DNA of 64,000 bases, from assembly GCF_044647545.1 (NCBI RefSeq), contig NZ_CP172818.1; one strand, 5' to 3'. Shown here piece after piece: positions 60,843-64,000 of the stretch. The notes under the pieces are model-generated. The model was not told where the DNA came from. It saw only the letters and a list, made by a program, of their open reading frames with translations, and did not search any database. A program made the translations under genes and the position numbers. Numbering within the stretch: position 1 is the stretch's first letter; every line of letters begins with the position of its first letter. This DNA is from Escherichia coli (GTDB lineage Bacteria; Pseudomonadota; Gammaproteobacteria; Enterobacterales; Enterobacteriaceae).

Positions 60843-61820
60843 ATGAATGCACTGACCGCCGTACAAAATAACGCTGTCGATTCAGGCCAGGACTATAGCG
60901 GATTCACTCTCATCCCGTCGGCGCAATCCCCGCGTCTGCTGGAACTCACCTTCACCGAACAGACGACCAAACAGTTTCTCGAACAGGTTGCCGAATGGCC
61001 CGTGCAGGCGCTGGAGTACAAATCTTTTCTGCGTTTTCGGGTAGGCAAAATTCTTGACGATCTGTGTGCGAACCAGCTGCAACCATTGCTGTTGAAGACC
61101 CTGCTAAACCGTGCTGAAGGTGCGCTGTTGATCAATGCGGTGGGTGTCGATGATGTGAAGCAAGCGGATGAGATGGTGAAGCTGGCAACGGCGGTAGCGC
61201 ATCTGATTGGCCGTTCCAATTTCGATGCGATGAGCGGTCAGTATTACGCGCGTTTTGTAGTGAAAAATGTCGATAACTCAGACAGCTATCTGCGTCAGCC
61301 GCACCGCGTAATGGAGCTGCATAACGACGGCACCTACGTCGAAGAGATCACTGACTATGTGCTGATGATGAAAATCGACGAGCAGAACATGCAGGGTGGA
61401 AATTCGTTGCTGCTGCATCTCGATGACTGGGAACATCTGGACCACTATTTCCGCCACCCGCTGGCGCGTCGCCCGATGCGCTTTGCCGCGCCGCCGAGCA
61501 AAAACGTCAGCAAAGATGTTTTCCATCCGGTGTTCGACGTTGATCAACAGGGTCGCCCGGTGATGCGTTATATCGACCAGTTCGTCCAGCCAAAAGACTT
61601 CGAAGAAGGCGTGTGGCTGAGCGAGCTTTCCGATGCCATTGAAACCAGCAAAGGCATTCTTTCTGTGCCCGTTCCCGTTGGCAAATTCCTGTTGATTAAC
61701 AATCTATTCTGGCTGCACGGTCGCGACCGCTTTACTCCGCACCCGGATCTGCGCCGTGAACTGATGCGTCAGCGTGGCTATTTCGCTTACGCCACTAACC
61801 ACTACCAGACGCATCAGTAA
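60843..61820 (+). CDS. csiD: CsiD / GlaH, carbon-starvation-induced glutarate hydroxylase (Fe(II)/2-oxoglutarate dioxygenase), 325 aa
   Basis: ORF 60738-61820; start at ATG 60843 giving [21 protein letters not shown]... Confidence 0.93.
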
Positions 61821-61839
61821 GCGCAAAGGAATTGAGCGG

Positions 61840-63108
61840 ATGTATGATTTTGTGATTATTGGCGGCGGCATCATCGGCATGTCGACCGCCATGCAACTGA
61901 TTGATGTTTATCCGGATGCCCGCATTGCGTTGCTGGAAAAAGAGTCCGGCCCGGCCTTTCATCAGACGGGCCACAACAGCGGCGTGATCCATGCCGGGGT
62001 CTATTACACGCCCGGTAGCCTGAAGGCACAGTTTTGCCTGGCGGGAAACCGCGCCACCAAAGCCTTTTGCGATCAAAACGGCATTCGCTATGACAACTGC
62101 GGCAAGATGCTGGTCGCCACCTCTGAACTCGAAATGGAACGGATGCGCGCGTTGTGGGAACGCACGGCGGCGAACGGTATCGAGCGCGAGTGGTTAAACG
62201 CCGAGGAACTGCGCGAGCGCGAACCGAATATCACCGGGCTCGGCGGCATTTTTGTGCCGTCCAGCGGCATTGTCAGCTATCGCGAAGTGACGGCGGCGAT
62301 GGCAAAAATCTTCCAGGCCAGAGGCGGCGAGATTATTTATAACGCCGAAGTCAGCGCCCTCAGTGAGCATAAAAACGGCGTGGTGATACGTACCCGTCAG
62401 GGCGGTGAATATGAAGCATCGACGCTGATTAGCTGTTCCGGGCTGATGGCTGACCGGCTGGTGAAAATGCTCGGCCTCGAACCGGGCTTTATTATCTGCC
62501 CGTTCCGTGGCGAGTATTTCCGCCTTGCGCCGGAGCATAACCAGATTGTTAACCACCTGATTTACCCCATTCCCGACCCCGCGATGCCATTTTTGGGCGT
62601 GCATCTCACCCGCATGATCGATGGCAGCGTGACCGTCGGGCCAAACGCGGTGCTGGCTTTCAAACGTGAAGGCTATCGCAAGCGCGACTTCTCATTTAGC
62701 GACACGCTGGAGATTTTGGGCTCGTCGGGGATTCGCCGGGTGCTGCAAAACCATCTACGCTCAGGACTGGGCGAGATGAAAAACTCGCTGTGCAAAAGCG
62801 GCTATCTGCGGCTGGTGCAAAAGTATTGTCCCCGGCTTTCGTTAAGCGATCTCCAGCCCTGGCCCGCCGGTGTGCGGGCGCAGGCGGTATCGCCGGACGG
62901 CAAGCTGATTGACGATTTTCTGTTTGTCACCACCCCGCGCACGATCCACACCTGCAATGCGCCCTCCCCGGCAGCGACATCAGCAATTCCTATTGGTGCG
63001 CATATTGTCAGCAAGGTACAAACGCTGTTGGCAAGCCAGAGTAACCCCGGACGCACGCTGCGAGCGGCACGTAGTGTGGATGCCTTACACGCCGCATTTA
63101 ATCAATAA
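61840..63108 (+). CDS. lhgO: L-2-hydroxyglutarate dehydrogenase/oxidase LhgO (YgaF), FAD-dependent, 422 aa
   Basis: In-frame ATG 61840 within ORF 61774-63108; translation MYDFVIIGGGIIGMSTAMQL... (FAD-binding GxGxxG). Confidence 0.93.
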   Translation: MYDFVIIGGGIIGMSTAMQLIDVYPDARIALLEKESGPAFHQTGHNSGVIHAGVYYTPGSLKAQFCLAGNRATKAFCDQNGIRYDNCGKMLVATSELEMERMRALWERTAANGIEREWLNAEELREREPNITGLGGIFVPSSGIVSYREVTAAMAKIFQARGGEIIYNAEVSALSEHKNGVVIRTRQGGEYEASTLISCSGLMADRLVKMLGLEPGFIICPFRGEYFRLAPEHNQIVNHLIYPIPDPAMPFLGVHLTRMIDGSVTVGPNAVLAFKREGYRKRDFSFSDTLEILGSSGIRRVLQNHLRSGLGEMKNSLCKSGYLRLVQKYCPRLSLSDLQPWPAGVRAQAVSPDGKLIDDFLFVTTPRTIHTCNAPSPAATSAIPIGAHIVSKVQTLLASQSNPGRTLRAARSVDALHAAFNQ

Positions 63109-63130
63109 CCTTTGAAAACAGGACGTAACA

Positions 63131-64000
63131 ATGAAACTTAACGACAGTAACTTATTCCGCCAGCAGGCGTTAATTAACGGGGAGTGGCTGGACGCCAACA
63201 ATGGCGAAGTCATCGAGGTCACTAATCCGGCAAACGGCGACAAGCTGGGTAGCGTACCCAAAATGGGCGCTGATGAAACCCGCGCCGCTATCGACGCCGC
63301 CAACCGCGCCCTGCCCGCCTGGCGTGCGCTCACCGCCAAAGAACGCGCCAACATTCTGCGCAACTGGTTCAATTTGATGATGGAGCATCAGGACGATTTA
63401 GCGCGCCTGATGACCCTCGAACAGGGCAAACCGCTGGCGGAAGCGAAAGGCGAAATCAGCTACGCAGCCTCTTTTATTGAGTGGTTTGCCGAAGAAGGCA
63501 AACGTATTTATGGCGATACCATTCCCGGTCATCAGGCCGACAAACGCCTGATTGTTATCAAACAGCCGATTGGCGTTACCGCCGCCATCACGCCGTGGAA
63601 CTTCCCGGCGGCGATGATTACCCGTAAAGCAGGTCCGGCGCTGGCGGCAGGCTGCACGATGGTGCTGAAGCCCGCCAGTCAGACGCCGTTCTCTGCGCTG
63701 GCGCTGGCAGAACTGGCGATTCGCGCGGGCGTTCCGGCTGGCGTGTTTAACGTGGTCACCGGTTCGGCGGGCGCGGTCGGTAACGAACTGACCAGCAACC
63801 CGCTGGTGCGCAAGCTGTCGTTTACCGGCTCGACCGAAATTGGCCGTCAGTTAATGGAACAGTGCGCGAAAGACATCAAAAAAGTGTCGCTGGAGCTGGG
63901 CGGCAACGCACCGTTTATTGTCTTTGACGATGCCGATCTCGATAAAGCCGTGGAAGGCGCGCTGGCCTCGAAATTCCGTAACGCCGGGCAAACCTGCGTC
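63131..64000 (+). CDS. gabD: Succinate-semialdehyde dehydrogenase GabD, N-terminal part (continues past window end)
   Basis: ATG 63131 opens a frame with no stop to the window end; translation MKLNDSNLFRQQALINGEWLDANNGEVIEVTNPANGDKLGSVPKMGADE... Confidence 0.9.
   Translation, partial: MKLNDSNLFRQQALINGEWLDANNGEVIEVTNPANGDKLGSVPKMGADETRAAIDAANRALPAWRALTAKERANILRNWFNLMMEHQDDLARLMTLEQGKPLAEAKGEISYAASFIEWFAEEGKRIYGDTIPGHQADKRLIVIKQPIGVTAAITPWNFPAAMITRKAGPALAAGCTMVLKPASQTPFSALALAELAIRAGVPAGVFNVVTGSAGAVGNELTSNPLVRKLSFTGSTEIGRQLMEQCAKDIKKVSLELGGNAPFIVFDDADLDKAVEGALASKFRNAGQTCV

Follow-up and report, generated by a model that had tools for sequence, protein, structure and literature searches.

The csiD–lhgO–gabD locus at the right end of a 64,000-nucleotide stretch of Escherichia coli DNA: a predicted copy of the known glutarate and GABA operon

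Identity and Layout of the Locus

The stretch considered here, called the window below, comprises 64,000 nucleotides of one strand of Escherichia coli DNA (assembly GCF_044647545.1, contig NZ_CP172818.1), and its right end carries the consecutive genes csiD, lhgO, and gabD. Judging from comparison with known genomes and proteins, this end is almost certainly the promoter and opening two and a half genes of the chromosomal csiD(glaH)–lhgO(lhgD)–gabDTP operon, apparently in a functional state. The three reading frames lie on the + strand without a single internal stop, and the last of them is cut by the window end:

60843-61820, + strand: csiD (glaH), ATG at 60843, TAA at 61818-61820; 325 amino acids, 978 bp
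61821-61839, + strand: csiD–lhgO spacer, 19 nt, with an AAGGA ribosome-binding site
61840-63108, + strand: lhgO (lhgD), ATG at 61840, TAA at 63106-63108; 422 amino acids, 1269 bp
63109-63130, + strand: lhgO–gabD spacer, 22 nt, with a CAGGA ribosome-binding site
63131-64000, + strand: gabD, ATG at 63131, open at 64000; 289 of 482 codons, the gene being cut by the window end

The spacer lengths of 19 and 22 nt given by the original prediction, which had recognized a carbon-starvation operon for glutarate and γ-aminobutyrate (GABA) catabolism, proved exact. The gene order expected of such an operon is found in full when related genomes are taken into account: csiD, lhgO, and gabD follow each other on one strand with short spacers, and gabT, gabP, and csiR come next in genomes that are 100% identical over the part visible in the window. 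The segment 60507-64000 shows zero differences from ST648, FDAARGOS_497, IMT16316, ECONIH1, and other genomes in RefSeq, where the genes are annotated glaH, lhgO, and gabD, in agreement with the assignment to the glutarate/GABA operon. In the ST648 genome, gabD is followed by gabT, gabP, csiR, and kbp, while csiD is preceded by ypjA, ypjCB, tRNA-Ile, and an alpha-amylase-family gene.

The same gene order and strand are known for E. coli K-12 MG1655, in which glaH(csiD)–lhgD(lhgO)–gabD–gabT–gabP correspond to b2659–b2663 and the repressor gene glaR(csiR) to b2664. Gene lengths in K-12 (978 and 1269 bp) equal those of the window, as do the spacer lengths (19 and 22 nt), and in both strains ileY and ygaQ adjoin the operon on the left. 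The csiD–lhgO spacer is identical in the two strains, whereas the lhgO–gabD spacer differs at 3 of its 22 bases, all within the 7 nt that separate the gabD ATG from its ribosome-binding site. As far as these comparisons go, the arrangement is no chance pattern.

A distribution search with the 3494 bases of segment 60507-64000 among 5426 complete E. coli genomes found it in 5395 of them, nearly always as a single copy and always on the chromosome. Together with the layout shared with K-12, this bears out the earlier view of the locus as a core feature providing the right-hand chromosomal context. Through the three genes, the right window end is anchored in the conserved backbone of E. coli (ileY–ygaQ–csiD–lhgO–gabD), which helps to mark off the variable, prophage-like DNA on the left. 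The biochemistry, structure, and regulation of stationary-phase lysine, glutarate, and GABA catabolism have already been characterized in K-12; the operon is thoroughly known, belongs to the core genome, has no unusual feature here, and this copy adds nothing new.

The program-made list of open reading frames offers longer frames for csiD (from 60738) and lhgO (from 61774). These starts were discarded: the shorter products are matched from residue 1-2 onward by the NCBIfam models and from residue 1 by the Protein Data Bank (PDB) and K-12 sequences. The predicted csiD transcription start (see below) also lies downstream of 60738. The alignments thus indicate that the shorter starts of csiD and lhgO are the real ones. 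Shine–Dalgarno-like motifs are located 6-9 nt before the starts of all three genes (AAGAGGA for csiD, AAGGA for lhgO, and CAGGA for gabD). The GC content of csiD, lhgO, and gabD is 53-58%, and minus-strand open reading frames of up to 136 amino acids that overlap them were attributed to this GC-rich coding sequence.

CsiD (GlaH)

CsiD matches the Pfam family PF08943 over the entire model (positions 1-294 of 294; 505.9 bits against a cut-off of 27) and the NCBIfam equivalog NF002814, "glutarate dioxygenase GlaH", again over its full length (1-311 of 311; 544.2 bits, cut-off 333). Its matches to the solved structures 2r6s, 6gpe, and 1jr7 reach E-values of about 1e-220, and by this measure the protein is essentially the crystallized E. 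coli CsiD. A gapless alignment with K-12 GlaH reveals 321 identical residues out of 325 (99%), the four differences, from K-12 to the window protein, being the conservative substitutions T24I, A68G, N201H, and S318T.

The functional residues of CsiD have been established as the Fe(II) ligands His160, Asp162, and His292, along with Arg309, which contacts the co-substrate, and Arg311, which contacts the glutarate carboxylate (PMC6265302). All five are retained: HND occupies positions 160-162, the His of WLHGRD stands at 292, and RQR at 309-311. CsiD is therefore predicted to be a glutarate 2-hydroxylase, i.e., an Fe(II)/2-oxoglutarate dioxygenase yielding L-2-hydroxyglutarate, with its specificity for glutarate suggested by the 321/325 identity with the characterized and crystallized K-12 enzyme.

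LhgO (LhgD)

LhgO belongs to the Pfam family DAO (PF01266; 213 bits) and scores 605.1 bits, against a cut-off of 299, with the NCBIfam equivalog NF008726, "L-2-hydroxyglutarate oxidase". A GGGIIG dinucleotide-binding motif of the GxGxxG type, expected to bind flavin adenine dinucleotide (FAD), is found at residues 8-13. The protein is 98% identical to K-12 LhgD (414 of 422 residues, eight conservative substitutions, no gaps), and its nearest solved relative is the chain "FI05204p" of PDB entry 8w75 (E 4e-89).

The original prediction had described LhgO as an FAD oxidase. Its FAD-family homology stands; the term "oxidase" does not, as the purified K-12 protein consumes no O2 and has been reclassified by Knorr et al. 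as the membrane-bound quinone-dependent dehydrogenase LhgD (PMC6265302). The K-12 gene is accordingly named lhgD in RefSeq. By its similarity to the K-12 enzyme, the window protein is likely to be an FAD-dependent L-2-hydroxyglutarate dehydrogenase that is membrane-associated and quinone-linked.

GabD

The visible part of GabD matches the Pfam family Aldedh (352 bits), and its best NCBIfam model is NF008415, the succinate-semialdehyde dehydrogenase dependent on nicotinamide adenine dinucleotide phosphate (NADP). The fragment scores 647 bits with this model, for which the full-length cut-off is 828, and its residues 1-289, out of 482, fall on model positions 1-289 without gaps. K-12 GabD shares 286 of these 289 residues (99%, three conservative substitutions, gapless alignment), and the top match in the PDB is E. 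coli GabD itself (3jz4, E 2e-188). In aldehyde dehydrogenases, the Glu of the ELGGN motif and the Cys of the GQTC motif are catalytic residues; ELGGN is kept at 255-259 (Glu 255), and the GQTC Cys is residue 289. Dioxygenase, FAD-oxidoreductase, and aldehyde-dehydrogenase homologies, for which the original prediction had proposed a homology search, are all present in Pfam and NCBIfam. From its sequence relationships, gabD is assigned as encoding an NADP-dependent succinate-semialdehyde and glutarate-semialdehyde dehydrogenase.

Regulatory Region Upstream of csiD

The intergenic region 60507-60842 (336 nt) is 98% identical to that of K-12 and bears the following elements, known or predicted:

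60517-60544, + strand: hairpin with an 11-bp stem, returned by the scan for terminator-like structures, directly after the ygaQ stop
60706-60727, + strand: candidate box for the cyclic AMP (cAMP) receptor protein CRP, TTTGTTGCTTTTGATCACAATA, centred at 60716.5; right half TCACA perfect, left half poor
60747-60759, + strand: CsiR (GlaR) primary operator 1, TTGTGCGCATTTT (TTGT-N5-TTTT), exact consensus match, unchanged from K-12
60766-60778, + strand: CsiR (GlaR) primary operator 2, ATGTAGATATTTT (ATGT-N5-TTTT), exact consensus match, unchanged from K-12
60785, + strand: predicted csiDp transcription start, placed from the CRP candidate and the -68.5 position; 5′ untranslated region of about 58 nt

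The hairpin has the same stem as in K-12, with one difference in the loop, and is probably the terminator that parts ygaQ from the csiD promoter region.

In K-12, csiD depends on sigma-S and is activated by cAMP–CRP, Lrp, and H-NS, and glutarate lifts the repression by CsiR (PMC6265302, PMC2859248, PMC3141248, PMC5217608). A CRP site at -68.5 is attributed to Germer 2001 in the passage of PMC2859248 that quotes this work. In the window, the intergenic 22-mer that comes closest to the CRP consensus (12 of 22 positions) lies at 60706-60727 and is unchanged from K-12. A consensus search across the whole window returned 213 matches where about 247 would be expected, and the motif alone thus performs no better than chance. 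The position of the putative csiD CRP box is supported instead by the combination of the top local match, the identity with K-12, and the published location at -68.5. The transcription start would lie near 60785 only if 60706-60727 is indeed the CRP box centred at -68.5.

The CsiR footprint in K-12 comprises two primary sites, TTGT-N5-TTTT and ATGT-N5-TTTT, separated by 6 nt (Knorr et al., PMC6265302), and the gap between the two operators in the window is likewise 6 nt. Given a start at 60785, the operators would span approximately -38 to -7, i.e., the core promoter, which fits repression by promoter occlusion. Several candidates for secondary CsiR sites with 1-2 mismatches were seen, and none was assigned. 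The sigma-S and cAMP–CRP dependence named in the original prediction matches the K-12 literature, from which the putative regulation of the window operon by sigma-S, cAMP–CRP, and glutarate/CsiR is carried over by analogy; the promoter DNA is conserved.

Compared with K-12, two bases have changed in the stretch that separates the candidate CRP box from CsiR operator 1, T to G at 60740 and T to A at 60744. As a result, positions 60741-60754 form a perfect inverted repeat, GCGCA-TTTG-TGCGC, and the scan for terminators picks it up on both strands. It is very unlikely that these changes represent a lineage-specific regulatory shift of the ST648-type lineage, in which an altered promoter architecture or secondary CsiR site would affect the induction by glutarate or starvation.

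Searches in the 3′ part of lhgO gave zero matches to a Nac site (ATA-N9-TAT) and, for an internal gabD promoter, only weak -10-like hexamers, and the internal promoters were left unmapped. An Rfam scan of 54000-64000 (E ≤ 1) recovered the ileY tRNA and otherwise sub-threshold matches only. Among the latter, a partial match to the enterobacterial sRNA STnc550, facing the csiD promoter on the - strand (60694-60784; 19.7 bits, gathering threshold 48, E 0.27), is probably due to chance, and a c-di-GMP-I-GGC riboswitch match inside gabD (20.1 against 59) was also judged to be a chance hit.

Proposed Mechanism of Operon Function

The mechanism outlined here has been shown in K-12 and would apply to the window copy by virtue of near-identity (PMC6265302). 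Upon carbon starvation or in the stationary phase, RNA polymerase containing sigma-S would start transcription at csiDp with the aid of cAMP–CRP bound upstream. CsiR/GlaR, a GntR-type repressor encoded downstream of gabP beyond the window, would occupy the two core-promoter operators until released by glutarate. CsiD would then convert glutarate to L-2-hydroxyglutarate with the concomitant conversion of 2-oxoglutarate to succinate and CO2, and LhgO would oxidize L-2-hydroxyglutarate to 2-oxoglutarate, passing the electrons to the quinone pool. GabT and GabD would convert GABA to succinate via succinate semialdehyde and, promiscuously, 5-aminovalerate to glutarate via glutarate semialdehyde; the latter step would tie lysine degradation, which supplies 5-aminovalerate, to the tricarboxylic acid cycle in the stationary phase. 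Internal promoters upstream of gabD would also drive gabDTP independently of csiDp.

The same logic, leading from glutarate via L-2-hydroxyglutarate to 2-oxoglutarate, is ascribed to csiD–lhgO of Pseudomonas putida KT2440 in PMC5974017 and PMC6667623, which also describe a glutarate-responsive CsiR of the GntR family. This bacterium is a different organism with a different operon context, and the likeness is drawn from those published descriptions.

Alternative Readings and Their Weight

Nothing contradicts the identification of the window end with a functional csiD–lhgO–gabDTP operon, although it has limits. The last 193 codons of gabD, as well as gabT, gabP, and csiR, lie beyond the window, and their presence is deduced from genomes identical over the visible part. 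The csiD transcription start and all of the regulation are transferred from K-12, and the motif alone does not set the CRP box apart from chance matches. A scan for the sigma-70 consensus upstream of csiD gave zero promoter calls on the + strand, as would be expected of a weak, activator-dependent sigma-S promoter. Finally, the GabD fragment remains below the cut-off of NF008415, a shortfall that arises only because the window end removes 193 residues.

The last point bears on whether the third gene might encode another aldehyde dehydrogenase, of the Sad/YneI, PuuC, or betaine-aldehyde type, since the fragment, besides missing the cut-off of the GabD equivalog, also matches 42 other NCBIfam models of aldehyde dehydrogenases. 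However, the missing bits reflect truncation, as the 289 residues available out of 482 cover model positions 1-289 completely, and the runner-up equivalog scores 278 bits against the 647 bits of GabD. With 286/289 identity to K-12 GabD and the E. coli GabD structure as the top PDB match, a different enzyme is barely conceivable. It is similarly hard to credit, although not quite to the same degree, that csiD, lhgO, and gabD are decayed or inactive here, as pseudogenes or as a silenced locus. Decay does occur in the neighbourhood, where three in-frame stops have made a pseudogene of the adjoining ygaQ in K-12, and the proteins differ from their K-12 counterparts by 4 (CsiD), 8 (LhgO), and 3 (GabD) amino acids. 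Yet neither internal stops nor frameshifts are present in csiD, lhgO, or the visible gabD, all of the substitutions fall outside the checked metal, substrate, FAD, and catalytic motifs, the same alleles recur with 100% identity in many independent isolates, and the promoter operators are intact. For the visible part of the locus, gene decay is thus excluded on sequence grounds.

More substance attaches to the suggestion, still an unlikely one, that csiD–lhgO and gabD(TP) are adjoining but independent transcription units and do not constitute a single operon. PMC5217608, in its citation of Metzner 2004, mentions two internal promoters near gabD and states that a csiR mutation or CsiR induction alters the expression of csiD and not of gabDTP, and nitrogen limitation is known to induce gabDTP separately (PMC6265302). 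On the other hand, the 19- and 22-nt spacers contain no terminator, terminator-like matches inside the genes occur at the level of shuffled sequences (8 versus 5.4 ± 2.3), and transcription from csiDp is reported to continue through all five genes, in addition to that from the internal promoters (PMC6265302, PMC5217608). The word "operon" in the original prediction is therefore upheld by the gene order, the short spacers, and the csiDp read-through, but not in the sense of a single unit: several transcription units overlap here, gabDTP having internal promoters of its own (PMC5217608). The reading as separate units is a refinement of the operon reading, being neither an alternative to it nor its refutation.

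Neighbouring Features in the Window

Directly upstream of csiD, at 58254-60506 (+ strand), there is an intact ygaQ homologue that encodes a protein of 750 amino acids from the alpha-amylase family, with weak Pfam matches (Alpha-amylase_C, 27.6 bits). K-12 ygaQ is a pseudogene of the same length, free of frameshifts, in which each of the three in-frame stops replaces a Trp codon. The GC content of ygaQ in the window is 37.8% compared with 53-58% in csiD, lhgO, and gabD, and this difference suggests that ygaQ is of foreign origin. Of the 5426 complete genomes, 4101 contain a match to ygaQ, and coverage reaches 80% or more in 3367.

Further to the left, a tRNA gene at 57622-57697 (- strand) is called tRNA-Met(CAT) by ARAGORN; RefSeq annotates it as tRNA-Ile in ST648 and as ileY tRNA-Ile(CAU) in K-12. 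About 30 kb to the left of ileY, at 27372-27734 (+ strand), lies the transfer-messenger RNA gene ssrA, whose tag reads ANDENYALAA. The layout of the region between approximately 27.7 and 57.6 kb resembles the CP4-57 region that adjoins ssrA in K-12. Matching genomes annotate yfjW, rnlA, and ypjA within 36000-60506. The top match covering the whole of this stretch among the 5426 genomes is only 97.5% identical, in contrast to the csiD end, which is 100% identical in many of them; from this comparison, the DNA to the left of the csiD end appears more variable or mosaic. Near the left window edge, a tRNA-Glu(UUC) gene occupies 1357-1432 (- strand) and may be the spacer tRNA of a ribosomal RNA operon.

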